The translations under genes and the position numbers were made by a program. The notes below the pieces were generated by a model, which was not told where the DNA came from, searched no databases, and saw only the letters and a list, made by a program, of their open reading frames with translations. From contig CAWGMQ010000003.1 of assembly GCA_963823665.1 (NCBI GenBank), forward strand, positions 1,632,001 through 1,696,000: 64,000 nt of DNA. The letters run 5' to 3'. Every line of letters starts with the position of its first letter. Position 1 is the stretch's first letter. Shown piece by piece: positions 32,327 through 47,296 of the stretch. The DNA comes from an uncultured Planctomycetota bacterium (GTDB taxonomy: Bacteria > Planctomycetota > Planctomycetia > Isosphaerales > Isosphaeraceae).

Positions 32327-32585
32327 CGGCGACACTCCTTGTTCGGACACGGTCCTGGTAATCCGGGGCCGGACTCGCCGCACTGGCTGTGCCGCACTTA
32401 TTCATCGGACCTCAGAAGGGCTTTAATAAGCGTTTTAGTCGCCAAAATCGCAATTACCCAAAAACTCCGCGCCAACATCACGCTGGCGCGCTGGGAACTC
32501 GTACTTGCGATGTTGAATCGAGTTCTCCCCCCCGGGACGTTGTAATCGCGCGAGATAGACGTGGCACACCAGCGACGGCGTTCCC

Positions 32586-32606
32586 GTAGTGTGGGTGCAA
32601 CCCACC
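32586..32606 (+). repeat. GTAG-type REP-like hairpin
   Basis: GTAG-T-GTGGGT-GCA-ACCCAC. Confidence 0.5.
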
Positions 32607-32708
32607 GTCTTCACACAGCTTGCGGCAGGTCGCATCGGCTAAGTAGGCAACGAACCCGCGCTGGCCCCTGATGGCGTGCGATACGTTACCGATAGCAGAG
32701 TTTGATCG

Positions 32709-32885
32709 ATGACCGACCACAAATCCGAAGACAACGATCTTACTCCCGAGCAGTGGACGGCTGAAGTTAAGCAGTTCATCAGAGATTTGATCGTTCCTGG
32801 CTTTATCCAGCAGCACGAAGGCAAATGGGTTCATCGAACGGATCCCGATACTTGGTATGAGTTCGATCCCTCACTAACGAAATAA
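32709..32885 (+). CDS. Small hypothetical protein (58 aa, not in ORF track)
   Basis: Hand translation MTDHKSEDNDLTPEQWTAEVKQFIRDLIVPGFIQQHEGKWVHRTDPDTWYEFDPSLTK*; lower GC. Confidence 0.45.
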   Translation: MTDHKSEDNDLTPEQWTAEVKQFIRDLIVPGFIQQHEGKWVHRTDPDTWYEFDPSLTK

Positions 32886-33005
32886 CGATTTCAGCGAAAG
32901 CGCTTCGATAAACCGATTCACGCGCACGAATCCGCGGTGCCTCTCTCCGATCGATCAAAGCGGCTTCGAATCCCCGCTCGTCATCATCCGTTCGACTTCA
33001 AACCC

Positions 33006-33206
33006 ACATTCTTGAATTCTTCGCGCCTTCCCTTGGCGCCTTTGCGACTTTGCATGTGTATATCTTCATACAAACATTCTTGAATTCGTCGCGCCATGCC
33101 TTTGCGACTTTGCGTGAGCCCGTCTCCCCTTTTCCGTTCAATAACCCGGCCCAAATCGTCACTCCCATTCGCGTGAGCTTCTCCTCCCGTGATACCGCCC
33201 ACGCCC
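33006..33206 (+). repeat. Dispersed repeat copy A (internal tandem duplication)
   Basis: CTTGAATTC..CCTTTGCGACTTTGC twice, followed by a segment homologous to 46037-46175. Confidence 0.75.
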
Positions 33207-33269
33207 GCGTGTGCTCGGGCATTCCGGTAGGCGTAGCCTGCGATGGAAGACGCATTCTCACACTCGCGA

Positions 33270-33956
33270 TCAACTCTCGCCTGGAATCCTGCTCTTGCGA
33301 CCCGGTTTCTTCGCCTTCTTCACTCGCTTTTCATCCTCGATCGTATCAACATATTCATCGAGCCAGTCGACACCCCCGCGGAGGTTCATCATGAAACAGC
33401 GAACCTCGATGTCCCAGAGATGTTTCAGAGACTCGAGATCCGGGTTCTTCCCGTAGGAACGCTTGACGATCTCCCGGAATCTCCTGGAGATCGGATCCGT
33501 CTCGCCAGGAGGATACGGGTCGACTCGACGCTCGCGGCAATAGTTGTCGATATCAGCCTTGAGCAAGAACGCCTGGCGGCTGTGATCCTTATGCTCGGCC
33601 TCCAGGTCATAAATGTTGTGGCCGGCATCCGGGTCGTACTTCACGTACGACTGATCAAAAAACTCCGTGTAGGCACCGCAATCGCGGTGCTCGACAACGT
33701 ATACATATTTAATTTGATGGAGGCCCACGGCCAGGACCAGGTGATCGAAGAACGCCTTGTGCCAGGCAGGCATCTGCATGGCACCGGCCGCCGCTCCGGC
33801 CAGGATGAACTGGTCGAAGCGGTTTTCAAGGTTCTCGAAATTCATGAACTTCACCAGATTATCCAGCAACCTCAGGTCCATGCAGCTCAAAAGGAGCACG
33901 TTCTTGCGAGGGGAGGTGTGGGTCGTGCTCTGGTAATCGGCTTGGCTGACGTCCAT
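33270..33956 (-). CDS. Beta-class-like carbonic anhydrase
   Basis: Zn ligands SCMDLR and EHRDCGAY. Confidence 0.78.
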   Translation of the reverse strand: MDVSQADYQSTTHTSPRKNVLLLSCMDLRLLDNLVKFMNFENLENRFDQFILAGAAAGAMQMPAWHKAFFDHLVLAVGLHQIKYVYVVEHRDCGAYTEFFDQSYVKYDPDAGHNIYDLEAEHKDHSRQAFLLKADIDNYCRERRVDPYPPGETDPISRRFREIVKRSYGKNPDLESLKHLWDIEVRCFMMNLRGGVDWLDEYVDTIEDEKRVKKAKKPGRKSRIPGES

Positions 33957-34153
33957 AGATCGGTCCCTGATAGTTTCCCTGTTCTCGTTCACGATCCCCA
34001 CTGCCCGATTGTAAGATAATTTCAATTCGAGGACGGCGCCCGAGTCCTCTCGATTCGCTGTTGGGCGACTTCGAGTTCGTGGGTGGATATCCGGCCGGTA
34101 TTGTGTTGCGATGGGATGCGGTAAGGCTATCATCAACATTAGAATGTGTTCAT

Positions 34154-34213
34154 GCCTGACGAGGCGATCCAGCGGACCCGCCTGCGGCGGGCCGCTGAAC
34201 TTTCGCGTCAAAT
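34154..34213 (+). repeat. attC site (short type)
   Basis: GCCTGAC..CAGCGGACCCGCC/GGCGGGCCGCTG..GTCAAAT. Confidence 0.8.
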
Positions 34214-34231
34214 GGCTTCGGGGGAGCGAGC

Positions 34232-34483
34232 GTGAAAACTGTCGTCGTGGTGCCGATACGCGGCCAGGGCAACGCCTGGAAGGTGGCCGAGCCGTCGGAT
34301 CCGCCCGCCAGGGTGCAAGATCGCGTGGTCACGCTCGAGATCCAGGGCAACGCCGCAGAGGGTTACCACCTCGTGATGAGCCCGGCCGGCTGCTTCACCG
34401 CGGACACTTGGCACGCGAGCGTCGAGGATGCCAAGGCCACCGCCGCGAAACTGTTTGGTGTCCCTCCCCAAGAGTGGTCATAG
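34232..34483 (+). CDS. Cassette ORF, hypothetical
   Basis: GGGGAG RBS after attC; followed by GCCTAAC 34486-34492. Confidence 0.75.
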   Translation: MKTVVVVPIRGQGNAWKVAEPSDPPARVQDRVVTLEIQGNAAEGYHLVMSPAGCFTADTWHASVEDAKATAAKLFGVPPQEWS

Positions 34484-34599
34484 CCGCCTAACCATGACGG
34501 ATCGGAGTCCGCGAAGCCAGACCTCCAATCAATGTACAACAAGCCCGGCGATGACCGCGCAGAGCCCTGAGCATGGGAAACGCTCGGCGGCAGGGTCGA

Positions 34600-34737
34600 T
34601 CAACGATCGGTAAGCCCTGCCGTCTTTATCGCCTGAGGGTTCGCACCGCAGTCGCCACGCAGCACTCCTGGCTTCGCGTGCACCTGATCGAGCAGTCCGG
34701 GCGGCCTTGCATCACTCGTCGCGTGACCATTCGTCAT
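34600..34737 (-). pseudogene. Possible integron integrase relic
   Basis: 45-aa ORF divergent from downstream cassettes containing RPPGLLDQV and AIKTAGLT, resembling IntI segments; no catalytic motifs. Confidence 0.3.
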
Positions 34738-34921
34738 CTTTCTATGTTTTCGTTTGGAATCCCAATTCTGCGTCCGTAGGATCATTTGAAATCGAGGACA
34801 GTGCCTGACTGCTCGGCAGTGTTTCCTGCTCGACGTTGGGCAGCACGTCCGGCGGAATGAGAAAAAACGCGGTTTCTGTCGAATTCTTGTGAGCACACGT
34901 TCAAGCCACACTGATCCCAAG

Positions 34922-35372
34922 ATGAAGCGTCCACTTCGCATCGGCAGCTTGGCGCAGTACATCGAGGCGACGAACTCCGTACGCGACTCATGGATCGGGA
35001 AAGGCGCGTACTTCGACCCCTGGTTCCGTGGGCACACCGACGCCGACTGGGAACTTACTGCTTCTCTGATTCGGCTCGGCCTCGAAGATCACGAGGACGC
35101 GATTCGATCGGAGCTCATTTGATCCACCCCACATCGCTCGCCGCGTCGCGGTTCAGCAGAGCCGATTCACGATTCACGGGACCGCGGCGAACGGAATTGA
35201 GTTGTTAGGGCGGCGGCGGGGTTCGCGTTTACAGAAGTTGGTAATTGACCAGGAAGCAATTGTTAAGGTGCGCGTTGACCTGTACACTGCCGGCATCACG
35301 GACACCAGTGTCTTCCCCGACCTCCAGGGGCTCAGCCAGGAACTCACTCGCTACTTCACGGACGACTGGTAG
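34922..35372 (+). pseudogene. FRG-domain protein cassette with internal deletion
   Basis: N-part WFRGH..WEL..SL.R joined out of frame at ~35121 to C-part RVAVQQSRFTIHG..GIT..SVFPDL.GL; central QHYG/TRLLDW region absent. Confidence 0.72.
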
Positions 35373-35515
35373 CAGAACACGCTTTAAGCTTGCAGGACGC
35401 TCGACGGCAGGATCGCTCAACGATCATTCAGGCATGCGCCGCTGGTCGTGACTCGAGTATCGGGCCGCGGACGCCATATTGTCGGCGGCAGCCACTTTGC
35501 GGTAGTCTCCAAGGT

Positions 35516-35719
35516 ATGAGCGTAGAAGAACTCCAGGCCGCCGTCGCACAGCTCCCCGCTGAGGAGCTCGATCGCTTTTCGCACTGGTTCGAGGAGTTCC
35601 TGGCGGATCAATGGGATCGGCGAATCGAGGCCGATATCCTGGCCGGGCGCCTTGAAGCCGCGGGCCGCCGCGCCGACGAGGACTTCGAAGCCGGCCGCTG
35701 CACGCCGCTCTCGCCGTGA
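35516..35719 (+). CDS. Putative antitoxin
   Basis: 67 aa acidic protein (WDRRIEADI.AGRL) whose stop overlaps the toxin start (GTGA). Confidence 0.75.
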   Translation: MSVEELQAAVAQLPAEELDRFSHWFEEFLADQWDRRIEADILAGRLEAAGRRADEDFEAGRCTPLSP

Positions 35720-35973
35720 ACCACTTCGCCACCCCGGAGTTCTGGTTCCACTATCGCCGCCTACCGGCGGAAACCCGCGACCTGGCTGACCAATGCTTCG
35801 CGATGCTCCAAGCTGATCCGCGCCATCCGTCGCTGCGATTCAAGAAGGTCGGGGATTTCTGGTCTGCTCGTGTCGGTCTCCGCATCCGCGCGCTCGCGAG
35901 GCAGCGCCCCGAGGGCTTGGTCTGGTTCTGGATCGGTCCCCATGATCGCTACGAGCAACTGATCGCTCAATGA
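35716..35973 (+). CDS. RelE/ParE-superfamily toxin
   Basis: F..YRRLP..DPRHPSLRFKK..WSARVG..RAL..WFWIG.H..Y. Confidence 0.78.
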   Translation: MNHFATPEFWFHYRRLPAETRDLADQCFAMLQADPRHPSLRFKKVGDFWSARVGLRIRALARQRPEGLVWFWIGPHDRYEQLIAQ

Positions 35974-36034
35974 ACGACAAGCGGACCCGCCCCAGCGGAC
36001 CCGCTCCGCGGGCCGGCGGTCTGCGGCGTTAGCC
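35969..36034 (+). repeat. attC site, degenerate
   Basis: AATGAAC..AGCGGACCCGC (duplicated)..GCGGGCC..GTTAGCC. Confidence 0.6.
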
Positions 36035-36048
36035 TGCGGGAGGCGCGG

Positions 36049-36414
36049 ATGCTCGGGCTGCTCGAAGTTCTCTGGTGGCATCACTGGTCCTGTCCCCGAA
36101 CCATCGAGTCGGCCGCGCATGACTTCCTCAACGCTCGCAACCCGGAGCGAGTCAGGGCTGTCACGCACGTGGGATCGCGGGCCGCCTGGCCCATTCGCTG
36201 GCCCAACTGGAGGCTCAATCGACCGCGGTCGTAGCCGACACCGCGCGGCGGGCGATCCACGACGTGTGGCTGGCAATCGTCGACGATTACGAGAACGGTC
36301 GATCAAATCTGTCGAGCGCTTATCTCGCCAATGTTCATGCGAGGCTAGCGGCGGCTAGCTCGGGAGTACGCGAGACAGCAGGCGCCAGGCGGCGGCGCTC
36401 CGGGCATCGCATAA
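36049..36414 (+). pseudogene. Cassette ORF, interrupted hypothetical
   Basis: GGAGG RBS + ATG after attC; frame broken at 36234; TAA in next R''. Confidence 0.45.
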
Positions 36415-36506
36415 CCGTCGCTGCAACGGACCCGGCCCGCCGCGGCTTCGTGATACAATCCACGCTCGTGCTCGGTGGGCCGGGCCGCTGAGCTCATGCG
36501 TTAGGG
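36409..36506 (+). repeat. attC site (long type)
   Basis: GCATAAC..CAACGGACCCGGCCC/GGGCCGGGCCGCTG..GTTAGGG; TGATACAAT in the loop. Confidence 0.88.
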
Positions 36507-36523
36507 GGCGGGGGGTCCACAAG

Positions 36524-36775
36524 ATGGTGGATGCATGTCCCAGTTGCGGCGCGCCAGTCGGCCAGCTTCACGAGCCGTTCTGCAACCGGGAGCTGTGTCC
36601 CTTCTGCGGCGACTTCATCACCACTTGCGACTGCATCTTCGAGGTGCTGTCGCTCACGGCCGAGGAGTGTGAGCTCGTCGAGAAGTTCGAGGACGACTCA
36701 GTCCAGCCCCTCCGGGGTATCTGCGACCGCTGGAGCGAAGCAGTTGAAGCCAAGGGGCGGGTTCCGTACGCTTGA
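36524..36775 (+). CDS. Cassette ORF, Cys-rich small protein
   Basis: CxxC, H..C, CxxC, CxC; flanked by attC sites. Confidence 0.75.
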   Translation: MVDACPSCGAPVGQLHEPFCNRELCPFCGDFITTCDCIFEVLSLTAEECELVEKFEDDSVQPLRGICDRWSEAVEAKGRVPYA

Positions 36776-36812
36776 GTCACTGCTTAAGCATCGGCGGCCT
36801 CAGCCGTGACAA

Positions 36813-36872
36813 CCCCTACATTGCGATGCAGCGGACCCGCCTGCGGCGGGCCGCTGATCCTTGTCGTCAGGC
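36813..36872 (+). repeat. attC site (short type)
   Basis: CCCCTAC..CAGCGGACCCGCC/GGCGGGCCGCTG..GTCAGGC. Confidence 0.8.
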
Positions 36873-36891
36873 CTGCACGGACCACGGACAC

Positions 36892-37209
36892 ATGGCAACG
36901 TGGCAATACGAGCTTGTGGACCCGCCCTTCGAACCTCGGGCTCGCGAACTCTGGCTGCAGCACGCTGCAGGGTTCATCATCTTTCAGGATGTTTGTGACA
37001 AGGCGACGGAATGTGCATGGGCTATCACGGCTGGCTCGAAGGTGATTTTGGCAAACATCCAGTCGCGGTATCGCGACCCAGCGAGGGTGATGGCGAGGCC
37101 CAGCCCTGACGAATCGCCGCGTCAGCCCCGGCCCCCGGCGATGCTTTGTGTTAGATTCGTGGCTGCGCCCGGCCAGCCCCTCGCACGCCGGGCGCGGAAC
37201 GCCGCCTGA
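36892..37209 (+). pseudogene. Mosaic/truncated cassette ORF with embedded attC relic (~37104-37175)
   Basis: MATWQYEL..; CCCTGAC..TGTTAGATT relic inside the 3' part. Confidence 0.45.
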
Positions 37210-37307
37210 CCGGCGAGCCAGCAGACAAGCCAGTCGGCTGGCCGCTGTTCTTTAGTACAATCACGGCTCCGCCCGACGGTCGGTCCGCTAAGCTTTGGTC
37301 GTCAGGC
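37204..37307 (+). repeat. attC site (long type)
   Basis: Complementary cores GCCTGAC/GTCAGGC; TAGTACAAT in the loop. Confidence 0.75.
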
Positions 37308-37320
37308 ACCGAGGAAATCA

Positions 37321-37608
37321 ATGTCTCCAGTCGTCCCCGAAGCGTGGAAGCCGCGGCTGCGGCAGTATCTCCGCCAGCGGCGTGGCGAGGAGCGCGACCG
37401 CCTCTCGGCCGATGATTTCCCACCGGGGCTGTGCGTCCTCATCCGCTTCCCCGATGGTTCCCACGTCCTCTTTCGGTATGCGTTCGCCATCCTGGATGAG
37501 GCGGCCGGCGAGGTCATCGTCTTCACGGAGCACTGCGGGTACCATGTATTTCCGCTCGGTGATGCCGAGGTCGAAGAACTGCAATCGTCGGATTCACGGG
37601 TCCGCTGA
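37321..37608 (+). CDS. Cassette ORF, hypothetical
   Basis: GAGGA RBS; FTEHCGYH motif; attC on both sides. Confidence 0.78.
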   Translation: MSPVVPEAWKPRLRQYLRQRRGEERDRLSADDFPPGLCVLIRFPDGSHVLFRYAFAILDEAAGEVIVFTEHCGYHVFPLGDAEVEELQSSDSRVR

Positions 37609-37609
37609 T

Positions 37610-37669
37610 GTCTAATATTGCGATGCAGCAGACACCGCTGCGCGGGGCCGCTGATCCGCGTTGTTAGCC
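37610..37669 (+). repeat. attC site (short type)
   Basis: GTCTAAT..CAGCAGAC..GGCCGCTGAT..GTTAGCC. Confidence 0.78.
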
Positions 37670-37687
37670 GAGGGGGGAAGGTGGACC

Positions 37688-38126
37688 ATGTCGTTCTCCG
37701 AGAACATGGCCAAGGTCGTGGCCGACCAGCTCGCTCGCTTCGTCACCCTCAACACGCATCAACTCGCTGGCCATGTGGCCAACCTCGACTTCTGGGTCTC
37801 TCAGGCCCGGCACGCCTTGGAGGTCATCGACGGCTACGAGCCACGATTCCGCCAGCTCAAGGCGGCGCAAGATCAGTACGTGGCCGAGCACCGGACCGAG
37901 AACCTTTCTGCCCAGCGACCCTGATATCCACGGGTCACCGGACCCGCCACGGCGTGTCGCACATGCGGCTCTGCGTGAGGCCCGTCGCTCGGTTACGGAG
38001 CCGACTTACCGCTTCCTGGTGCGCTGCTGCAACGACGGTCTGATCGCGGAGTCGAAGTTGCGAGCCATCTGCTTTAACCTGGATACCGGCGTCGAGTCCG
38101 CAGACATTCGTCGAAGACGGGGCTAA
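37688..38126 (+). CDS. Cassette ORF, hypothetical (frameshift ~37900)
   Basis: HQLAGHVANLDFW; stop TAA inside R'' GGCTAAC. Confidence 0.7.
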
Positions 38127-38181
38127 CGTTGCGATCCAGCGGACCCGCCTCGCGGCGGGCCCCGGAACTGGAGCTTCAGGC
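38121..38181 (+). repeat. attC site (short type, mutated R')
   Basis: GGCTAAC..CAGCGGACCCGCC/GGCGGGCC..TTCAGGC. Confidence 0.75.
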
Positions 38182-38189
38182 GGCGCGAA

Positions 38190-38579
38190 ATACACCCTCA
38201 CGAGGCGGCGACAATTCGAGCATTTGTATCTCCGTCGCGTCGAGAGCGATGGCTCGGCCTCCTGGCATCGGCGAAGCGGCGTCGCTCGTTCCTCGGCCGA
38301 CTGAATCACTGCCGAGACATTGATGAACGATATGCCACGCCGGTTCCCTCGAGCGCCAACATCGCCGCAGTGCTCGGTTCTCATGGCGCACCGGAGACTT
38401 GCTACGTCCTCTCCGATATCCCGACGATAGACGGCCGGGAGTTACCCCTCGATGAGGCCATCGATCAGGTCGAGTTGGCCATGTGGGGAACACTCATCAG
38501 TTGCGTTCCCGGTCGCCTCGCGTACTACTATGATGAGTGTGGCGCTCGACGCTGGCTGCTACAGCGATCGACCGTTTGA
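38190..38579 (+). pseudogene. Duplicated cassette ORF copy 1 (start codon reads ATA)
   Basis: Collinear with 39812-40201; about 11 substitutions in 390 nt by hand count. Confidence 0.8.
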
Positions 38580-38672
38580 CCCGGTGCTGCAGCGGACCCG
38601 CACGCCGCGGCGGCTTCTGGTACAATCGACAGCGGCTCGGGCGGGCCGGTCCGCTGAGCTTCGCTCTTGGAA
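38574..38672 (+). repeat. attC site (long type)
   Basis: GTTTGAC..CAGCGGACC/GGTCCGCTGAG; TGGTACAAT in the loop; R' degenerate. Confidence 0.78.
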
Positions 38673-38834
38673 GGTGATAACTATGCATGCGTGGGCGAGG
38701 CGAAACCTCGACGTCACTTACTATGCTCGATGGCTCAATCCGTATGCCCAGCATCGGTGACTTGGTCAAGTCTATCGAGTGTCGTGGGCTGGGCCTTGGG
38801 TCTCCTCGAAGCCGGCGGATTCGAGCTGGGGCGA

Positions 38835-38892
38835 GCCTGACGAGGCGATGCAGCGGGCCCGCTCCGCGGACCGCTAAATTCCGTCGTTAGGT
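38835..38892 (+). repeat. attC site (short type)
   Basis: GCCTGAC..CAGCGGGCCCGC/GCGGACCGCTA..GTTAGGT. Confidence 0.8.
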
Positions 38893-38908
38893 TCAGCGGA
38901 GGTGAGCG

Positions 38909-39313
38909 GTGGCGCGACGCTGGAAGTTGTGGGTGATCGGGATCTCCGTCGCCGCTACCGCCGTCCTCCTGGGGTGGTGGGCGACCGGTAAGGTCCTAGC
39001 TCCTCCCCTGAGACCGGAGAACTTCAACCAATTGCGGACCGGGATGCCCCAGTCCGAAGTAGAAGAGTTGCTCGGCGGTCCGCCCGGCAACTACGGCCAC
39101 GGCGGTGAAGCGATGATGACGGACGAAGGGTTCCGCAGTCCGCCCGGGTCGGTCCAGCGGATCTGGTGCGATGACAAGAACAGGCTCGAGCTGTACTTCG
39201 ACACCCGGGCGCGATTGGTCGGGTACCACAAGCGGGCGGGCTATACCCAGTCCCCGCCCGACGGATTCTTGGCTCGTCCGTGGCAGTCGAGTCGACGATT
39301 CTTGGGGCTCTGA
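38909..39313 (+). CDS. Cassette ORF, membrane-anchored SmpA/OmlA-like domain
   Basis: GGAGGT RBS; TM then F..LR.GM...EVE.LLG.P. Confidence 0.72.
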   Translation: MARRWKLWVIGISVAATAVLLGWWATGKVLAPPLRPENFNQLRTGMPQSEVEELLGGPPGNYGHGGEAMMTDEGFRSPPGSVQRIWCDDKNRLELYFDTRARLVGYHKRAGYTQSPPDGFLARPWQSSRRFLGL

Positions 39314-39348
39314 CCAGAGCGACGTCGGGCCTGACCTTGGCGTTAGCC
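39308..39348 (+). repeat. Internally deleted attC
   Basis: CTCTGAC..GTTAGCC, only 41 bp. Confidence 0.55.
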
Positions 39349-39361
39349 CGCGAGGGCACCG

Positions 39362-39748
39362 GTGAGACGTTCTCGAAAGGATAGCCGACGCCGCATCACC
39401 ATCGATGGCGTGGTCTACCGCTATCGTGTCTCTCCCAACAATGGCTTCATCACACTCACCGCGAAACCGAAAGGTTTCCGCGGGCAATTGCTCTCGGTCA
39501 CCTACGGCTACCACGACGATTGGGTGCCAGTCGGCGGCGGGGCTTTTACCTCAGGCGGTCACCGCCTCATACTGCCGCGTGTGGTGCGCCAGGCGATACT
39601 CGAAGGGCTGCGTCGAGGCTGGGATCCGATGGCATCAAAGCCGGGTGTATTCCGGGTGCATGATGGCGACAGCTTGCCCCAGGAAGACGAATGGCCCCGC
39701 TTCACTTCAGACCGGTCAACCTCGAAGCCATCGGGTGGCGTGCGCTAA
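39362..39748 (+). CDS. Cassette ORF, hypothetical
   Basis: RRITIDG..YRYRV..ILPRVVRQAI..GWDP. Confidence 0.75.
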   Translation: MRRSRKDSRRRITIDGVVYRYRVSPNNGFITLTAKPKGFRGQLLSVTYGYHDDWVPVGGGAFTSGGHRLILPRVVRQAILEGLRRGWDPMASKPGVFRVHDGDSLPQEDEWPRFTSDRSTSKPSGGVR

Positions 39749-39803
39749 AACTGCGGTCTAGCGGACCCGCCTGGCGGCGGGCCCCTGATCTGGGACGTTC
39801 GGC
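39743..39803 (+). repeat. attC site (short type)
   Basis: CGCTAAA..AGCGGACCCGCC/GGCGGGCCCCTGAT..GTTCGGC. Confidence 0.72.
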
Positions 39804-39811
39804 GGCGGAAA

Positions 39812-40201
39812 ATGCACCCTCACGAGGAAGCGACAGTTCGAGCATTTGTATCTCCGTCGCGTCGAGAGCGATGGCTCGGCCTCCTGGCATCGGCGAAGCG
39901 CCGTCGCTCGTTCCTCGGCCGACCGAATCACTGCCGAGACATTGATGAGCGATATACCACGCCGGTTCCCTCGAGCGCCAACATCGCCGCACTGCTCCGT
40001 TCTCATGGCGCACCGGAGACTTGCTACGTCCTCTCCGATATCCCGACGATAGACGGCCGGGAGTTACCCCTCGATGAGGCCATCGATCAGGTCGAGTTGG
40101 CCATGTGGGGAACACTCATCAGTTGCGTACCCGGTCGCCTCGCGTACTACTATGATGAGTGTGGCGCTCGACGCTGGCTGCTACAGCGATCGACCGTTTG
40201 A
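39812..40201 (+). CDS. Duplicated cassette ORF copy 2, hypothetical
   Basis: 129 aa intact, GTLISCVPGRLAYY. Confidence 0.8.
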   Translation: MHPHEEATVRAFVSPSRRERWLGLLASAKRRRSFLGRPNHCRDIDERYTTPVPSSANIAALLRSHGAPETCYVLSDIPTIDGRELPLDEAIDQVELAMWGTLISCVPGRLAYYYDECGARRWLLQRSTV

Positions 40202-40294
40202 CCGTGTGCTCCAGCGGACCCGCCCGCCGCGGCGTTTCTGCTACAATCAAGGTTCCGCCCGGCGGACCGAACCGCTAAGCTTTGGTCGTTAGGT
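40196..40294 (+). repeat. attC site (long type)
   Basis: GTTTGAC..CAGCGGACC..ACCGCTAAG..GTTAGGT; TGCTACAAT in the loop. Confidence 0.8.
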
Positions 40295-40311
40295 GGCAGA
40301 GACTGCAGGCC

Positions 40312-40929
40312 ATGAGTGATCGAATCGGCGTCGCAACGATCTGCTTGCACAGTAGCTCTGCCATCTATTTGATCGCGGGCTTGGCCTTTCTCGGCTATTC
40401 GCGATTGCCAGCTCAGCCAACGAACCTGCCCTCGGAAGCAGGGTTGGTAGGCTGCATTACCTGCCTCACATTGGCTGCGGGCATCGAGCTGGTGGCTCGT
40501 GGCCTCCGGCGCCGAAGGTATTGGGCATGGGTCGCCGGCGTGTGCATCCTCACGCTCTACGTCCCAACTGTGTTCTTGCCCCTCGGGGCCCTAGGGCTCT
40601 GGGCCCTCCTGACGCCAGCAACAAGAGCCTTGTTCGGCGTCGGACCATTGACCTCGATATCCAGGCGTCCCGGATCGGTGTCCATGACAACCGTCGCGTT
40701 CCGCCTGCTCCTTCTAACAATCGCCTTGACCGGCGTCGCGGTCGCTTACGTCCATTTATCGGGCGTAGGCATGCCACCGTATTCGCCAGTGCCGGACCCT
40801 TCCGAACTCGAGCGGATTCACCGTCTCGTGGGCCTCGCCTTATTCGCGGTCGCTGCGCTCTCCGCCGCCTTATCGATCGCGGCTCTAGCCGCCGTTATAT
40901 TGGTCCGATATCGTCGTCGGCCCCCCTGA
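40312..40929 (+). CDS. Cassette ORF, multi-pass membrane protein
   Basis: Several hydrophobic segments; stop inside R''. Confidence 0.7.
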   Translation: MSDRIGVATICLHSSSAIYLIAGLAFLGYSRLPAQPTNLPSEAGLVGCITCLTLAAGIELVARGLRRRRYWAWVAGVCILTLYVPTVFLPLGALGLWALLTPATRALFGVGPLTSISRRPGSVSMTTVAFRLLLLTIALTGVAVAYVHLSGVGMPPYSPVPDPSELERIHRLVGLALFAVAALSAALSIAALAAVILVRYRRRPP

Positions 40930-40984
40930 CCCGGCGATCCAGCGGACACGTCTGTTGCCCGGCCGCTGATCTTTAGCGTTAGCC
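40924..40984 (+). repeat. attC site (short type)
   Basis: CCCTGAC..ATCCAGCGG/CCGCTGAT..GTTAGCC. Confidence 0.82.
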
Positions 40985-40987
40985 GCC

Positions 40988-41385
40988 ATGGGAGAACCCG
41001 TGCAAGGTTCGAGCGCTGTCGAGGTAGTAATTGAGTACTGGCGCCTCATGGGCACCAATGACTTTGCTGCCGTCGGTGCCGTGCTGGCGCCCGAGTTCGT
41101 CCTCGAGTGGCCGCTGTCGCGCGAGCGCATTCGCGGGGCAGAGCGTTTTGCCCGGATGAATGCGGAGTACCCTGCCCATGGCCGTTGGTCCTTCACGGTC
41201 AATCGCTTGGTTGGCGGTCAGTCGGAAGCGGTCTCCGACGTCACGGTCACCGACGGAGTGCAAACCGCAAGGGTCATATCGTTCTTCGAGGTCAGCGGCG
41301 ACAAGATCACGCGGCTGGTCGAGTTCTGGCCCGAGCCGTATGAACCGCCTGCCAATCGGCGCATCTCGTGGAGCGCATGCAATGA
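40988..41385 (+). CDS. SnoaL-like / NTF2 family protein (1-nt loss near 41360)
   Basis: WP.S.ERIRG..EYPA.GRW.F..EFWPEPY; the likely natural stop TGA lies in R'' CAATGAC. Confidence 0.82.
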
Positions 41386-41483
41386 CCCGCGCTGCAGCAG
41401 ATCCGAACCGCCGCCGAGCTTTGTGGTAAGATCGACGCGATGCGAGGCCCGGCCTGCCGGGCCGCTGAGCTCCGGCGTTACGC
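41380..41483 (+). repeat. attC site (long type)
   Basis: CAATGAC..CTGCAGCAG..GCCGCTGAGC..GTTACGC; TGGTAAGAT in the loop. Confidence 0.75.
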
Positions 41484-41498
41484 AGCAGGGTCTGGCTG

Positions 41499-41840
41499 AT
41501 GCAACGGTTCCTGTTTGAATACATCGAGTTGTTCTCCTTCATCGGCGCCGGCACTCCGGAGGAGCCTGGCGGGGACTTCACCATGTACTGCTGGATCTCG
41601 GCGCCGGACAAGGCGGCTGCACTGGCATGGGGGTACGTCCTGATCGGCGACTACTGCAAGGCGCGATACGCGCACTCGGCAGACGGCCATCGGCACGACG
41701 GATCGCCGATCGAGGAGGGAGAGATCGTCGAAGACCCCGGGGTACTTGCTGCTGCCGTGCATTGGGATATTCCTGCATGCCGCGTCGGTGAGGTCCCCGA
41801 ATGGCGCGAGCCGTGGCGGTTATCCAACACCGGGAGATAG
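41499..41840 (+). CDS. Cassette ORF, hypothetical
   Basis: 113 aa, starts 16 nt after R'. Confidence 0.65.
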   Translation: MQRFLFEYIELFSFIGAGTPEEPGGDFTMYCWISAPDKAAALAWGYVLIGDYCKARYAHSADGHRHDGSPIEEGEIVEDPGVLAAAVHWDIPACRVGEVPEWREPWRLSNTGR

Positions 41841-41845
41841 GCCAA

Positions 41846-42235
41846 GTGAAGCGCACGTGGACGATCATTGGGGTAGCCGATGTGGCCGGCAGCTTCAAAT
41901 GGTACCAGTCGCTCTTCGGCCAGCCGGAGATGCGTCCCGCCCATGACGACTTCGGGCAAATCCTCGACTCGGATGGCACGGTCTTGCTCTGCCTTCACGC
42001 GTGGGGTGCCCACGAGCATCCCTCCTTGATGAGCCCCGATCACGGGAAGCCTGGGAATGGCCTCCTCTTGTTCTTCCGTGTAGACGATTTCGACATGGCC
42101 CTGCCAAGGGCACGGGCTCTCGCCTCTCAGCTCGAAGCGGAGCCCCACGTGAACCCGAACACAGGAACCATGGAGTTCTCGCTCCGAGATCCAGACGGGT
42201 ATTATGTCACGATTAGTGCGCTCTCTGCGGCCTGA
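41846..42235 (+). CDS. VOC/glyoxalase family protein
   Basis: VADV..S..WY, LFFRVDDFD, EFSLRDPDGY; followed by half attC GCCTGAC 42230. Confidence 0.85.
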   Translation: MKRTWTIIGVADVAGSFKWYQSLFGQPEMRPAHDDFGQILDSDGTVLLCLHAWGAHEHPSLMSPDHGKPGNGLLLFFRVDDFDMALPRARALASQLEAEPHVNPNTGTMEFSLRDPDGYYVTISALSAA

Positions 42236-42275
42236 CCACTCGCTCAATCGCACCGGCGCATCCTGGTTCATTCAG

Positions 42276-42734
42276 ATGACACAGGTCCGTCCTTCTAGCC
42301 TGCTGCTGTTCACCTTGGCGATATGTGCCGCGGGGTGCCGGAGCGCACCGGACCCGGACCCCCTGCCCCATACCAGTAGCGTTCGAGGTATCAAGGCGAG
42401 GTACTTCGACCCGACGACGAAACAGAAGCTGGAATTCGACGTACCGCGTAGCCATTGGGTTCCGATCATCTCGGCGATGAGGCCGAACCGTTCCGACCCG
42501 CAGCCGGCGGACTGGATGGTCCTCGGCGAACTGCGGATTACCCAGTTGGATGGGAGTCCGTTTTTCGTGGGCATGTATTCCATCCGAAGCGGGGAGGGGG
42601 CGTTCTCGGCGGGCGCGAGCTTCGAGAAGCGGTTATACTACAGGGGCGGGAGTACGCCCGACCTCGTCCGCGCCCTGAACGCCGCCTATGCGCAGTTCAG
42701 CGGCAAGCGAGGCGATGCGACGGATGCGAAATAG
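42276..42734 (+). CDS. Cassette ORF, putative lipoprotein
   Basis: Lipobox AAGC after a hydrophobic stretch. Confidence 0.7.
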   Translation: MTQVRPSSLLLFTLAICAAGCRSAPDPDPLPHTSSVRGIKARYFDPTTKQKLEFDVPRSHWVPIISAMRPNRSDPQPADWMVLGELRITQLDGSPFFVGMYSIRSGEGAFSAGASFEKRLYYRGGSTPDLVRALNAAYAQFSGKRGDATDAK

Positions 42735-42738
42735 CCCA

Positions 42739-42789
42739 GTCTAACGAGACGCTGCAGCCGATCCGCCTGTCGGCGGGCGGTCGTTACCA
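42739..42789 (+). repeat. attC site, shortened
   Basis: GTCTAAC..CTGCAGCCGATCCGCC/GGCGGGCGG..GTTACCA. Confidence 0.7.
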
Positions 42790-42848
42790 GGCAGAGAGAG
42801 ATACGAGGAGCGCACGCAGTAACCCGCGCCACAGATGAGAGGGTTGAG

Positions 42849-43205
42849 ATGGCGAAACACTTGCACAAAGGCGACGAGACACGGCGTCGCTGGAAGATTA
42901 TCGATGCCTCGCGGTCTGGTGACGCGAGCCTGCTGCCGCAGCTCCTCGCCCGCCTCGACGGCGGCGAGACCTACGATAATAGGCGCCATATCGTCCGGGC
43001 ACTCGGCAACATCGGCGGACCGCGATCCGAGGCCAAACTTCTTGAGTTGCTCGGCAGCGAGCGCGGGCTTATCCTCGGTGATATCGCTCGGGCTCTCGGC
43101 GAAATCGGCTGTCATCGAGCCGCCAATCCGCTTGAGAGTTTGCGCACGCACGAATCCGAGTGGGTTCGCCAGAATGTCACATTTGCGCTTCGACGGCTCT
43201 CATAG
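42849..43205 (+). CDS. Cassette ORF, HEAT-repeat protein
   Basis: VRALGNIG, ARALGEIG, WVRQN..FAL. Confidence 0.8.
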   Translation: MAKHLHKGDETRRRWKIIDASRSGDASLLPQLLARLDGGETYDNRRHIVRALGNIGGPRSEAKLLELLGSERGLILGDIARALGEIGCHRAANPLESLRTHESEWVRQNVTFALRRLS

Positions 43206-43208
43206 CAT

Positions 43209-43240
43209 GGCTAACAATGCGATGTCGGAACTTGTCAGGC
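43209..43240 (+). repeat. Internally deleted attC
   Basis: GGCTAAC-AATGCGATG..GTCAGGC, 32 bp. Confidence 0.5.
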
Positions 43241-43302
43241 GTGGACGCGGCCCTCAAGCGCACGCCCAAGGGCCTTACAGGTGAAGGCCCAAACGGGAGC
43301 AG

Positions 43303-43854
43303 TTGATGGCGTTATCCGACGACGACCTCCGGCGTAGTTTCGAGGCCTTCGAGAACCGCAAACGATATCCAGTGCTCGCACCCAGCGTCTTCGCTGGCAT
43401 CGGCGACGAGTCGGTCGAGCAGGCGATCCTCGATTTCGTCGAGATGAAGGTTGGTCGCAACTCGAAGCGCCAGTACAAGATCGTGACGGCGCTCCCATTC
43501 GGCATTCAAGCCGTTTACACAACCTACTTCCTTGATGCCGAGGTCCGCAATGGCGGCTTCAACCAGTACTTCTGGAATTCCACCGGTCAATTTGCAATCG
43601 AGGCCTTGGACGGACTTCGCTTCTTCGGCGCTACTGATCACGCGAGACTCCTCGAGGGCGCAGTTCAGACTTACATGCGAGAGGCACCCATTCTCACGCG
43701 ATTCCGCATGCGCAACACACTCAAGGCTTTCAGCACGTCGTACAAAGCTACCAGTCTCACCGAATTCGACCAACCGTGGTACCGGTTTCCGTCAATTAGC
43801 CCGCTGCGCGTCAGCCGAATTCGCGCCGAGCCAAGCCTCTTCTCCGCAAGATAG
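43303..43854 (+). CDS. DUF4375 (DMP19-like) protein
   Basis: LDAEVRNGGFNQYFWNS motif. Confidence 0.82.
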   Translation: MMALSDDDLRRSFEAFENRKRYPVLAPSVFAGIGDESVEQAILDFVEMKVGRNSKRQYKIVTALPFGIQAVYTTYFLDAEVRNGGFNQYFWNSTGQFAIEALDGLRFFGATDHARLLEGAVQTYMREAPILTRFRMRNTLKAFSTSYKATSLTEFDQPWYRFPSISPLRVSRIRAEPSLFSAR

Positions 43855-43969
43855 CACTGCCCGCGGGCGTACAAAGCGCCGCCGCTAACATGCGGATATG
43901 CTGGAGTCGCGGGTCAAGCTAGTATGGGAGTTGTTCGCGGATGTGCCGCCGGACACCTTGCCCACGGAC

Positions 43970-44022
43970 GGCTAACGAGCCGATCCAGCGGACCCATGGG
44001 CCGCTGATCTGGGGCGCTACGG
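43970..44022 (+). repeat. attC site (short type)
   Basis: GGCTAAC..ATCCAGCGGACCC/GGGCCGCTGAT..GCTACGG. Confidence 0.72.
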
Positions 44023-44038
44023 GCGGGAGGTTCACCCT

Positions 44039-44464
44039 TTGCGGATCACGCTCACTCGCTTCACCTCCGGGCTGCTTCGCGTCCTGCTTACGCCGATCGT
44101 CCTACCGATCAAGTTGTTGAGCGCGGTGACGGGGCGGGGCAAGAAGCCGGCTTATGCGAGCACCATTGCCGGCGATCCGCTCGCGTACTCCGGCGACAGG
44201 CCCGTCCTCATCGCCGTCTGGGCATCATGGGCGGGGGTGTGGCGTGCAGCAACCGAGCAGGTCGTCGAGCAATTGCGCGGCGAGTTCGCCGGCAGTTGCG
44301 AGTTCGCGTATGTCGAGTGCGACAGCAGCACCATCAAAGACGCCTATCGTGCCGATGTCGTGCCGGTCCTGATCTTGCGGCATCGGGGTCACGAGTTGGC
44401 CCGCTTCGTCAACACGCTTGAGGCCGCTAGAGTACGGCAGGCGATCGCAGAAGTTGCCGCCTGA
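44039..44464 (+). CDS. Cassette ORF, thioredoxin-fold protein lacking CxxC
   Basis: PVLIAVWASWAGVW, VVPVLIL..G.E..RF; GGAGG RBS. Confidence 0.7.
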   Translation: MRITLTRFTSGLLRVLLTPIVLPIKLLSAVTGRGKKPAYASTIAGDPLAYSGDRPVLIAVWASWAGVWRAATEQVVEQLRGEFAGSCEFAYVECDSSTIKDAYRADVVPVLILRHRGHELARFVNTLEAARVRQAIAEVAA

Positions 44465-44557
44465 CCTGGCGCCGCACTGGCCCAGGCCCGCCGCGGCGAC
44501 TTTCGCGGTATCACGGCTTTGCTCCGCGGGCCTGGCCGCTGAGCTTGCTTGTTTGAC
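44459..44557 (+). repeat. attC site (long type)
   Basis: GCCTGAC..CCAGGCCCGC/GCGGGCCTGG.CCGCTGAGC..GTTTGAC. Confidence 0.78.
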
Positions 44558-44575
44558 AGCAGCGGGGCGAGTCAC

Positions 44576-45097
44576 ATGCGGATCCGGAAGGCGAGTGAGT
44601 CAGATGCGGAGGCGATCACGGCCGTACACATCGCTTCGATGCGGGAGGCGTATCGTACGCTCGTACCGCCCGAGGCGCTCGCGGGATTCGACGCGCAGGA
44701 CCGGACTCAGCGGTGGCGTGAGGTTCTCGCCGAGGGAACATCGACCACCCTGCTCGCGGAAGCCGGCGGCGAGCCCTTCGGCTTCGCCAGCTTCGGGAGG
44801 TGCCGGGATGAAGACATCTCGCCGGGGGCGGTCGGCGAGGTGATGGCCATCTACGTCCGCCCTGATGCCTGGGGCCAAGGCGTCGGTAGGGCGCTGCTGC
44901 GCGAGGCGCTCGATCGGCTGCGCAGTGACGGATTCGCCGAGGTGTCGCTATGGGTGATCGAGGCGAATCGGCAAGCGATCGAGTTTTACGAGCGGTTCGG
45001 GTTCCTCCGCGATGGCTCGCTTCGCCGCCATGAGATGCTCGGGACTCCTACGGTCATCATTCGGATGCGGTTGCGGTCGGGTATGGATACCGTCTAA
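44576..45097 (+). CDS. GNAT family N-acetyltransferase
   Basis: IYVRPDAWGQGVGRAL, N..AI.FYE..GF; stop inside GTCTAAC. Confidence 0.9.
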   Translation: MRIRKASESDAEAITAVHIASMREAYRTLVPPEALAGFDAQDRTQRWREVLAEGTSTTLLAEAGGEPFGFASFGRCRDEDISPGAVGEVMAIYVRPDAWGQGVGRALLREALDRLRSDGFAEVSLWVIEANRQAIEFYERFGFLRDGSLRRHEMLGTPTVIIRMRLRSGMDTV

Positions 45098-45099
45098 CA

Positions 45100-45467
45100 C
45101 TCTCGGATTGCTGGTTCTACTACTGGTCGTCGCCGCCCCAATAGCCTGGTTCGCCTCGGAGTTCCAGGATCGGCGCTGGCTGTGTCTCGCCTTGGGTACC
45201 TTGACCATCCTGCTCTCCTTCGGCGTCGCGGCCCTGGTCGGATCGCTGGAGCGGTTCAATTCCAACGCCTGGTTCGGTCGCGCCACGAAGGAACTGATCG
45301 ACGCCGCGGTCACTGAACTGGAGGCAGGCAACCCGGCTCGGGTTCTGCGCTCGCTCAAAGACTTGCAGGGGCAATACACGCCCACCTACGAGAACCGAGC
45401 GCGATACGATATGCTGGTGCAGGAAGCGGTGAAGGAGATGCGATCGCCGGAGGGAAAGGCCCACTGA
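45100..45467 (+). pseudogene. Membrane protein cassette lacking its start (fused to the previous R'')
   Basis: Coding-like TM segment begins directly after GTCTAAC; stop inside CACTGAC. Confidence 0.55.
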
Positions 45468-45612
45468 CATCGCGATTCGACAAAGCTCACCCTCCCGGCC
45501 ACCACGAGTTGATCGGGGTCGGGCACTCTTGCTTCGGTGTCGGCGATCAGGCGGCGATCGTGGACAACCTGTTCGCCAATATCCAGAGCGTTCGGCACCG
45601 AGCGAGCAGACA

Positions 45613-46011
45613 ATGAAAATCTGGCAGCTAGCCATCACGCTGATCGTCTTGATCGTCTTGCGTGAGGTGTCCGGAAACCTCCTGATGCGACTTACGGGGT
45701 TGGCTGTGCTGGCCAATTTCGGGGGGCTGGCCATCGGCTCGTTCTTCTCCGGATGGCTGGCCGGTGCAATCAGCGAGCTCGGTCCTTCCCGTGGCCAGCT
45801 CTGGAGCTTGGCCGCGCTGGGTGTCATCGCAGCGATCGGGATTGGTTTCATCCAGGGTGCGAACTTTCTGGCGGTGGCCGTGGTATTCATGGTGCTGATC
45901 AACATACCACTGTCGTACGGTTGCCTACTCCTCGGTGCCCACGTCGCGGAGCCCCGCACAAAGATCCAGCCGCCGCCTCTAGAAGAGGATAGCCTCGGTT
46001 CGGACCCTTAG
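45613..46011 (+). CDS. Last cassette ORF, membrane protein
   Basis: About 4 TM segments; preceded by GTTCGGC 45590. Confidence 0.65.
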   Translation: MKIWQLAITLIVLIVLREVSGNLLMRLTGLAVLANFGGLAIGSFFSGWLAGAISELGPSRGQLWSLAALGVIAAIGIGFIQGANFLAVAVVFMVLINIPLSYGCLLLGAHVAEPRTKIQPPPLEEDSLGSDP

Positions 46012-46036
46012 GCTTCACATGCATCCGCCGAGCTCG

Positions 46037-46175
46037 CTTGAATTCTTCGCGCCCTCCCTTGGCGCCTTTGCGGCTTTGCGTGATCCCATCTTCCCTGTTT
46101 CGCTGTGCTTCATTCCGGCCCGCATCTTCACTCCGATTTGCCTGATCAACTCTTCGCGCGATACCGCCAAAGCCC
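46037..46175 (+). repeat. Dispersed repeat copy B
   Basis: 3 mismatches over 46 nt with 33011-33056 plus weaker homology with 33146-33206. Confidence 0.75.
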
Positions 46176-46178
46176 CGA

Positions 46179-47140
46179 TTACGCAAACTCGGGATCGGTC
46201 ACTCCATCTCGACAGGCCTTTGCGTCCACGCCCTTGCGGGCAAGTTCCACCACAGCCCGATACCCCGGCATCGTCGAGTCCAGCGAAATTGTCTGCCCGT
46301 CGATCGCATGAATCCGCGCTCGCTCGATCGACGGCCCATCCACGTCCTGGCCCCGTTTCACATCGATTGAGTCAACACTTGAGAATGGAATCGATCGCCT
46401 GAGAAAAATGCTCCATAGCGCCAGCCCGGTCGGGTTCACCGTCAACTTCCGCGAGATCAATTCCAGACTGAGCATCGCCAGAAGCGGCGACGCGGCCACC
46501 GCCAGCACGCTGAGGTACCACACCGCGGGCGAATCGTCTACACGGCCGCTACCGGCCAGGTTGAGCCCGGATAAACCCCCGACCAAGAAGATCGGAACCA
46601 TCGTCGCCATCATCATGAACCCGACCGTCCTGGTCGGCCGGAACGACCCTCCGTGCTTGGCCAGATCGCGCAGGCCCTCCTCGCGCAAGGCGGCAAGACG
46701 AGGCTCGAGTCGCGCACGCAACTTCGAGCCCTCGAGCAGGTAATGAAATCGAATCGGAAGCCGCGTGCCATCCCGTCCATACAAAAACATGCGCCCGAAC
46801 GTCTTCTCAATCCCTTTGAAGCCGGTTGGGCACGACTCTTCGAAGCGAACCAGATCACTCCAGGCGACGACGCTTCGCCACCCCGAGGCGTGCCGTGTGA
46901 TCCCCTGATCATCCAGTGTGAAGCTGCGCCTGCCTCACCGGCTGCCAAAACCAGGAAAATCGCGGCGGCCGTCAGGCCCCCCATCAGGAAAATCGCCGCC
47001 GCGCAAGTTACCAGGTCGAACGTATGGATTTGGGGAACGGCCAGGCTGATGATTAAACCAGCGAAACACAGCAGCAAGCCACCCGTCAGCGCAAAAACCG
47101 CCGCCACGCCCCTATCCCCCTCGTATCGCTCCACGTCCAT
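46179..47140 (-). CDS. Hypothetical membrane protein with PH-like segments (frameshifted)
   Basis: Two overlapping minus-strand ORFs with TM pairs. Confidence 0.55.
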
Positions 47141-47215
47141 CGCTCCCCTGCCGGTCAGCTCGAATTCCGCGCAAATCTATTCGCTGCCAAACACCACCTA
47201 TTTCGCAACTCCCGC

Positions 47216-47262
47216 CGCCCCAACGGGGCGAAGGTCAATAGCCAGGGGCTTCCAGCCCCTGG
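47216..47262. repeat. REP-like double hairpin
   Basis: CGCCCC-AAC-GGGGCG and CCAGGGGCT-TCC-AGCCCCTGG. Confidence 0.6.
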
Positions 47263-47296
47263 TATCCTGATACGATACCCCAGGAGGACTCTTTTT

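Follow-up and report, generated by a model that had tools for sequence, protein, structure and literature searches.

A 64,000-nucleotide (nt) stretch of the genome of an uncultured Isosphaeraceae bacterium (Planctomycetota; contig CAWGMQ010000003.1, positions 1,632,001 to 1,696,000; hereafter the window) holds an array of integron gene cassettes whose long attC recombination sites carry, in the terminal loop, a short AT-rich motif resembling the extended −10 element of a sigma70 promoter. On the basis of sequence comparisons within the window, among relatives, and with other attC families, we conclude that this loop feature is real and that a promoter function is likely. We consider it probable that the motif is a sigma70 promoter lacking a −35 element, carried along by one cassette and reading into the cassette that follows.

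The loop motif of long attC sites

The attC sites of the window were located with a covariance model trained on 60 long sites from relatives, 32 of which bear the motif. The model returned long attC sites at 36409, 38574, 40196, 41380, and 44459, together with a weaker match at 37204 and, near 37125, a partial relic (Table 1). A preliminary description of this DNA had listed seven 9-mers in sites of the attC type, and all seven are exactly where it had placed them; the sites that hold them are ~98 to 105 nt long, and the 9-mer lies in the loop. Its consensus for these words, TGnTAnnnT, holds at 36451, 38618, 40239, and 41424 and in the relic at 37149. At 37253, the hexamer is intact (TAG-TACAAT), but G at −14 is absent and the site is a chimera rather than an ordinary long attC. 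The word at 44506, which had been called degenerate, reads CGG-TATCAC, with T−15 and T−7 both gone. TAnnnT is therefore present in 6/7 sites and TG at −15/−14 in 5/7. Counted over both strands, the 64-kb window has 27 occurrences of TG.TA...T, of which 5 fall in the 7 long loops, a concentration above chance, although these loops are related copies.

The hexamer lies 64, 59, 56, 64, 66, and 61 nt before the next start codon at six sites, in agreement with the ~55 to 70 nt described earlier. This distance is not independent evidence, because the place of the motif within the attC is fixed (37 to 41 nt before the crossover in 100/110 motif-bearing sites of the family) and cassette leaders are short. 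The flanks of the motif diverge, as had also been noted: the attC sites at 38574 and 40196 are identical at 75/100 positions, compared with 376/387 for the duplicated genes in front of them. The duplicated cassette gene lies in 38121-38672 and 39744-40294, its first copy having ATA instead of ATG, and the attC sites upstream of the two copies are 48/62 identical. This divergence suggests that attC sites decay faster than genes or that they may be exchanged.

Sites of relatives were gathered with patterns that specified the arms only, so that the loop was not selected for; they are samples, drawn from at least 150 and at least 135 stretches in two scans. Among the matches listed, TG.TA...T was found on the top strand of 65 of the 154 unique long loops (sequence duplicates and the window's own sites removed) and on the bottom strand of none (shuffle mean, 3.7; maximum, 12). 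A replicate set from metagenomes gave, again among the matches listed, 32/144 on the top strand and 1/144 on the bottom strand (shuffle mean, 4.1). Because the sites are kin, these counts and shuffle tests are not independent, and their significance is overstated. Once 23 loops of other types had been dropped, the long-attC family of the window comprised 275 sites, 110 of them with the motif. Judging from these loops, the motif is a trait of the long-attC family that reaches beyond the window.

Positions −12, −11, and −7 are the key positions of the sigma70 −10 element. The offset of the motif differs between subfamilies A, B, and C, which are defined by their arms. In subfamily A (gapless, 54 nt), TA-bearing loops had G−14 in 36/36 cases and T−7 in 34/36, with all four bases occurring at −10; loops without TA at −12/−11 had T−7 in 4/13. 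The metagenome replicate of this subfamily showed T−7 in 13/13 TA-bearing loops versus 3/15 non-TA loops. We then counted changes on a tree from which the nine motif columns had been left out, a procedure that inflates the counts of motif columns relative to those of the flanks. The 49 TA-bearing loops required a minimum of 1 change at −14, 2 at −13, 2 at −7, 5 at −8, 12 at −9, and 21 at −10, and 17 of the 19 flanking loop columns required 6 to 18. Site rates over all 77 A-type loops, which were unconditioned and used a tree that included the motif, were 0.73 to 0.93 at −14, −12, −11, −8, and −7 and ~2.5 at −15, −10, and −9. Among TA-bearing sites, the motif is thus more conserved than the adjacent loop, a comparison that the preliminary description had named as a check. 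In these comparisons −12, −11, and −7 are fixed and the interior is variable, as in a sigma70 −10 element, and conservation of T at −7 in sigma70 promoters has been described (PMC8407463). TG occupies −15/−14 in 94/110 motif-bearing sites of the family, and TTG at a −35 spacing of 16 to 18 nt occurs in 0/110.

Among the matches listed, named records of the long-site family were almost all from Planctomycetota, and 16/36 same-family genomes matched the arm pattern. An integrase (TIGR02249 over the cut-off) was found in 18/61 family genomes, and intI is divergent from such arrays in two genomes (G026:C5 and G019:C110); the integrase link is seen in relatives and not in the window. Long attC sites are also uniform in length, with 200/226 at 95 to 104 nt even when the motif is shifted, although the pattern allowed a 30-nt range. 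Many motif-less loops of relatives (for example, L206, L208, L264, and L377) share a second class of words (GGTCATGCA, GGTGATGCA, GGGAGTGCG, and GGTCAGTC) at the position of the hexamer; this class is possibly the site of another sigma factor, or merely a second loop lineage.

Other attC families and the promoters of the hosts

Does the motif recur where arms and loop are different? A second attC family, found mostly in Thermoanaerobaculia records and in one gammaproteobacterial record, differs from that of the window in both. TAnnnT was present on the top strand of 24/24 of its loops and on the bottom strand of 5 (shuffle mean, 7; maximum, 14), in the form of ten different hexamers at two offsets; 10/24 were TG extended. 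Six loops from unpublished genomes were left out of this count. The loops of a third family, which comes from 7 genomes that belong to other families within the host's phylum, are 73% GC; TAnnnT was found in 32/33 of them, G−14 in 30/33, and the bottom-strand pattern in none. Since the third family keeps G−14 mostly without TG, the common core is G(−14)-n-TAnnnT. The extended −10 proposed earlier therefore stands in this reduced form across families and not as the full TG. The presence of TAnnnT in two other families with different loops argues against shared ancestry alone. By eye, the motif was found in one of 11 matches in a Chthoniobacterales genome; among nine stretches of viral contigs, the loops examined were of another type, and the motif was absent from them. 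A long attC family of the Anaerolineales type (L089, L257, L291, L303, L314, L348, and L374) keeps TATTAT in the loop, and G−14 is absent.

We compared the motif with promoters of the host, using 30 of its 77 tRNA loci, which contain 27 leading tRNAs. TTG or TTC followed at 16 to 18 nt by TAnnnT preceded 15/27 of these (antisense, 1; shuffle mean, 2.0), and the matches had G−14 in 11/15 and T−15 in 2/15. One of them, TGC-TATCAT-CAAG, is near the commonest attC loop. By these counts, the attC motif matches the form of host tRNA promoters, and its frequent T−15 together with the missing TTG is what would be expected of an extension that takes over from the −35 element. The word TGSTAHMAT was intergenic in 21/27 host matches versus 11/30 for the reversed control (P = 0.003); this comparison used the first 30 of 247 genome matches, with 3 window matches dropped, and a home-made gene model. 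TTG at −35 spacing was found in 2/30 of the host matches inspected. The hosts of the second attC family have the same tRNA promoter grammar (15/31). A standard −35/−10 scan found none of the attC motifs, as expected of words without a −35 element, and returned 2 sites versus 2.8 expected.

A candidate promoter carried by the preceding cassette

We propose that RNA polymerase holoenzyme would bind the double-stranded attC at G-n-TAnnnT, usually TG-n-TAnnAT, on the top strand of the loop. The start, ~7 nt past the hexamer, would fall within the attC, with ~30 nt left to the crossover, and the transcript would run into whichever cassette lies next. Because the start would precede the crossover, the leader would hold the right arm only, and the attC hairpin could not form in it. 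When a cassette moves, its attC goes along with the gene that precedes it; the promoter would therefore be carried by one cassette and act on the cassette downstream. Motif-bearing and motif-less long sites alternate along arrays, so that shuffling of cassettes would rewire expression, and an array without integrase could remain expressed without the cassette promoter Pc. We would give about an even chance to the broader idea that in several bacterial lineages the attC is itself a promoter, with on and off versions, so that each cassette switches whatever gene lands behind it. If this is true, integrase shuffling rewires expression combinatorially rather than by distance from Pc, and integrase-less arrays stay expressed.

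Several results weigh against the proposed promoter. The earlier suggestion that long attC sites double as portable promoters is strengthened by conservation, by recurrence in two other attC families, and by the form of host promoters, but it does not extend to every long attC. Conservation across attC sets bore out a family trait in relatives, yet 165 of the 275 family sites are without the motif, and subfamily D almost always lacks it. Over all 77 A-type loops, 22 changes are required at A−11, a number like that of the flanking columns, because 28/77 loops are without TA. Tree-aware pairs testing TA with T−7 gave 4 same, 0 opposite, and 3 uninformative (P = 0.125), a test that is underpowered. 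TG was present in 1/33 loops of the third family, in which T−15 and a −35-like TTG were both absent by eye, and the tRNA promoters of its hosts gave 4 sense versus 3 antisense matches of 33. Among long loops of other taxa, TG.TA...T was found in 6/63, within the shuffle range (maximum, 7); this set overlaps the second family and includes two loops from an unpublished genome (G062). TGSTAHMAT is not enriched genome-wide in the host (247 versus 243 reversed), and a sense gene start lay within 300 nt downstream of 11/27 matches versus 5/30 reversed (P = 0.075). Context gave no signal either: motif-bearing and motif-less sites were alike in solo, first, or last position and in cassette length, and a good downstream open reading frame (ORF) followed 63/96 motif-bearing versus 87/149 motif-less sites (P = 0.28). 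In the window, no convincing ORF is present in the cassette behind the perfect motif at 38618, and an intact GNAT gene follows the broken motif at 44506. Finally, deletion of Pc removed most expression in 12 tested clinical cassettes, for which extra promoters and attC sites play a small role (PMC11511950).

One alternative is that sigma70 recognizes the motif but that the selected role is in recombination, with melting or supercoiling by the polymerase aiding cruciform extrusion, or with a short RNA acting as a primer. This would explain the −10-like conservation equally well and would agree with the lack of a difference in downstream genes; moreover, recombination is affected by loop sequence, and long loops are reported to make cruciform extrusion less favorable (PMC5027507). 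We nevertheless regard it as unlikely, since the motif invariably occupies the top strand and is aimed downstream, is off-center in the second and third families, and persists in 16/23 long sites of two genomes with eroded cores in which intI was not detected. These are the host genome (G000) and that of a congener (G001), and the comparison covers 23 of their long model matches. Retention there, set against 76/149, was not significantly different (P = 0.12). Core A/T bases had changed in 28/92 cases versus 7/69 for the hexamer (P = 0.002), but 17 of the 28 changes were at one position; without that position, the counts were 11 and 7 of 69 (P = 0.45), and the contrast was gone.

Another reading, in which the holoenzyme binds but transcription is weak or activator dependent and of little consequence, or in which another protein with −10-like specificity is the ligand, seems to us quite improbable. 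Start sites located within an attC of a Vibrio fischeri cassette were read as possibly spurious (10.1101/2023.11.21.568050), which would fit such a reading, as would the −35-type box of 15/27 leading host tRNAs, the missing −35 element and GC-rich upstream arm of the attC sites, and the lack of a context signal. It leaves the tight conservation of G−14 and T−7 unexplained, and host TGSTAHMAT matches are mostly intergenic, though few have TTG at −35 spacing. Very improbable, in our view, is a functionless ancestral loop stretch kept by common descent and attC homogenization. The kinship of the sites, by which counts and shuffle tests overstate significance, would favor it, and so would the similar nonmatching words that subfamily D has at the equivalent place, the two flanking columns that are as conserved as the motif, and the nonsignificant test of independent pairs. 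However, adjacent columns differ about tenfold in their changes, in a −10-like order (21 at −10, 2 at −7); three families that differ in their arms, loops, offsets, and hexamer interiors have converged on a TAnnnT of the same strand; and A/T bases are retained within loops of 73% GC.

Other candidates were rejected. Coding constraint on the motif was discarded, as the upstream ORF reads through the loop in 5/200 sites, and a sub-hairpin presenting the hexamer was discarded as well, with no consensus pairs in the loop and CA after the hexamer in only 20/36. Readings as an IHF, sigma54, or secondary IntI (GNT) site were weighed by eye against consensus sequences, and none of them explains T−7.

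In the standard model of integrons, attC is a substrate for recombination whose loop is free in sequence, and distal cassettes are for the most part silent. Group IIC-attC introns with outward-oriented promoters reportedly place a promoter at the attC position, aimed at downstream cassettes; there, the promoter belongs to the inserted intron and not to the attC, whereas the ~100-nt sites described here have no intron-sized insertion. A conserved promoter motif in attC loops was not found described in the literature searched, which lacks most subscription papers, nor was any paper on planctomycete start-site mapping found there. No attC-internal promoter appears in the accessible portions of PMC11215538, on aac(6')-Im, or of 10.1101/2022.09.11.507474, on attG, and the search yielded only one-off precedents. 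In strain DAT722, one promoter bridges one attC junction, with a ~40-fold step in transcripts, and drives the next cassette (Michael and Labbate 2010, PMC2945992). That single promoter adjoins the Shine-Dalgarno sequence of the downstream cassette, whereas the window motif is wholly in the loop, 5' of the crossover, without a −35 element, and recurs as a family trait. Gene-less promoter cassettes (Blanco et al., 10.1101/2023.11.21.568050; Tansirichaiya et al., 10.1101/427781) likewise give mobile, Pc-independent expression downstream, and one start site was mapped within attC (10.1101/2023.11.21.568050). They lack an ORF and have the promoter in the cassette body; here, the cassettes bear genes and the motif is in the recombination site. 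Promoters in cassette 5' untranslated regions (cmlA, qacE, qnrVC1, and toxin-antitoxin cassettes; PMC8876359) also allow Pc-independent expression within arrays, but they precede and drive their own gene, whereas the window motif lies behind its own gene and would act on the neighboring one. A promoter in the attC loop of three families in two phyla would, if true, be a general route to expression without Pc.

The array, its sites, and its surroundings

The array contains genes for SnoaL, glyoxalase, HEAT-repeat, DMP19, thioredoxin-like, and GNAT proteins, together with unknowns, all between attC sites. The model gave 15 attC matches on the plus strand, two weak matches within ORFs being excluded, and the sites separate co-oriented small ORFs. 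No TIGR02249 match over the cut-off was found in the host genome (92% complete), and no intI remnant was found in the window by tblastn with the IntI of a relative (E ≤ 1). The array is therefore a cluster of attC sites lacking an integron integrase (CALIN), a class defined by at least two attC sites without intI nearby (Cury et al. 2016, PMC4889954), and it is decaying. According to PMC4889954, it was unknown whether the genes of CALINs are expressed at all; under the proposed promoter, the question becomes testable at single-base resolution, as motif-bearing and motif-less sites adjoin in cultured strains. One such strain is Tautonia sp. JC769, where long attC sites of both kinds are neighbors (loci L147, L194, and L204); Aquisphaera insulae JC669 (L113 and L114) is another carrier of the family.

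Table 1. Coordinates of the cassette array, its attC sites, and selected cassette genes in the window
Feature	Position	Strand	Remarks
Whole cassette array (CALIN)	34154..46011	+	small co-oriented ORFs, attC sites
First short attC, ~60 nt	34154..34213	+	loop motif absent
Long attC, AAC/GTT cores	36409..36506	+	TGA-TACAAT at 36451-36459; predicted start ~36466; 62 bits
83-aa Cys-rich cassette ORF	36524..36775	+	downstream of 36409 site; no Pfam match
Relic long attC, decayed arms, within ORF end	37105..37209	+	TGT-TAGATT at 37149-37157; 15.6 bits, partial
Chimeric attC, short-type left and long-type right half	37204..37307	+	TACAAT at 37256-37261, no G−14
95-aa cassette ORF	37321..37608	+	downstream of chimeric site; GAGGA before ATG; no Pfam match
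Long attC, R' core lost	38574..38672	+	TGG-TACAAT at 38618-38626; predicted start ~38633
Long attC	40196..40294	+	TGC-TACAAT at 40239-40247; predicted start ~40254
205-aa hydrophobic cassette ORF	40312..40929	+	downstream of 40196 site; no Pfam match
Long attC	41380..41483	+	TGG-TAAGAT at 41424-41432; predicted start ~41439
113-aa cassette ORF	41499..41840	+	downstream of 41380 site; no Pfam match
Long attC, mutated L'' box, broken motif	44459..44557	+	CGG-TATCAC at 44506-44514; followed by intact GNAT gene
GNAT acetyltransferase cassette	44576..45097	+	downstream of broken-motif site; PF00583, E 1.6e-22
Other short attCs	36813, 37610, 38121, 38835, 39744, 40924, 43970	+	covariance model
Doubtful short attCs	35985; 42739		weak match; truncated

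The consensus fold of the long-attC family has 16 pairs, 3 of them with compensatory changes, in the imperfect hairpin typical of attC, where R'' pairs with R' and L'' with L' and the central spacer and terminal loop stay unpaired. When the bottom strands of the window sites were folded, pairing along the L arms was obtained for 36409, 38574, and 40196, and misfolding for 37204, 41380, 44459, and the relic; z-scores were weak (−1.7 to +0.2). The core boxes of attC are RYYYAAC (R'') and GTTRRRY (R'). TAAC and GTT cores were present in 247/274 reference sites, a figure partly forced by the search pattern, and in 4/22 sites of the host and its congener; among the long sites of the window, only 36409 keeps both. 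We read this loss of cores as probable decay. Of the 23 long sites in these two genomes, 17 have a substitution at the first A of R'' AAC, mostly from TAAC to TGAC, which keeps the stop codon and breaks the recombination core; a change of R' GTT to GTC is also frequent in both.

The 37204 site agrees with the short attC at 40925 in 42/52 columns of its left part and with the long attC at 40197 in 44/53 columns of its right half; it is therefore a chimera fused at the hexamer. Long/short chimeric attC sites fused at or near the hexamer are found in both CALINs of the host genome. At 37204, the right half of the long site is kept, and in L527 (G000:C7 273865-273990), the left half and hexamer are joined to a short site. 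Further attC remnants and the second CALIN lie at ~509.8 kb of contig C3 (L399/L526), at 272-284 kb of C7 (L527), and at L551 and L559. In the C3 remnant, the left arm is gone and a perfect TGGTATCAT is retained.

Just 5' of the first attC, a promoter-like site (34106-34133, TTGCGA-16-TATCAT, with G at −14) is directed into the array and could take the place of Pc; an inverted carbonic-anhydrase-like gene overlaps it with its 5' region. An Rfam search of 32000-48000 returned nothing relevant. The spacer at 43855-43970, before the short attC at 43970, has no ORF and contains two plus-strand G-n-TAnnAT words (TAACAT and TAGTAT). Two small overlapping ORFs at 35516-35973 look antitoxin-toxin-like by eye and had no Pfam match at E 0.001. 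Related direct repeats at 33011-33206 and 46037-46175, ~13 kb apart, flank the whole array and are 86% identical over 57 nt and 77% over 61 nt.

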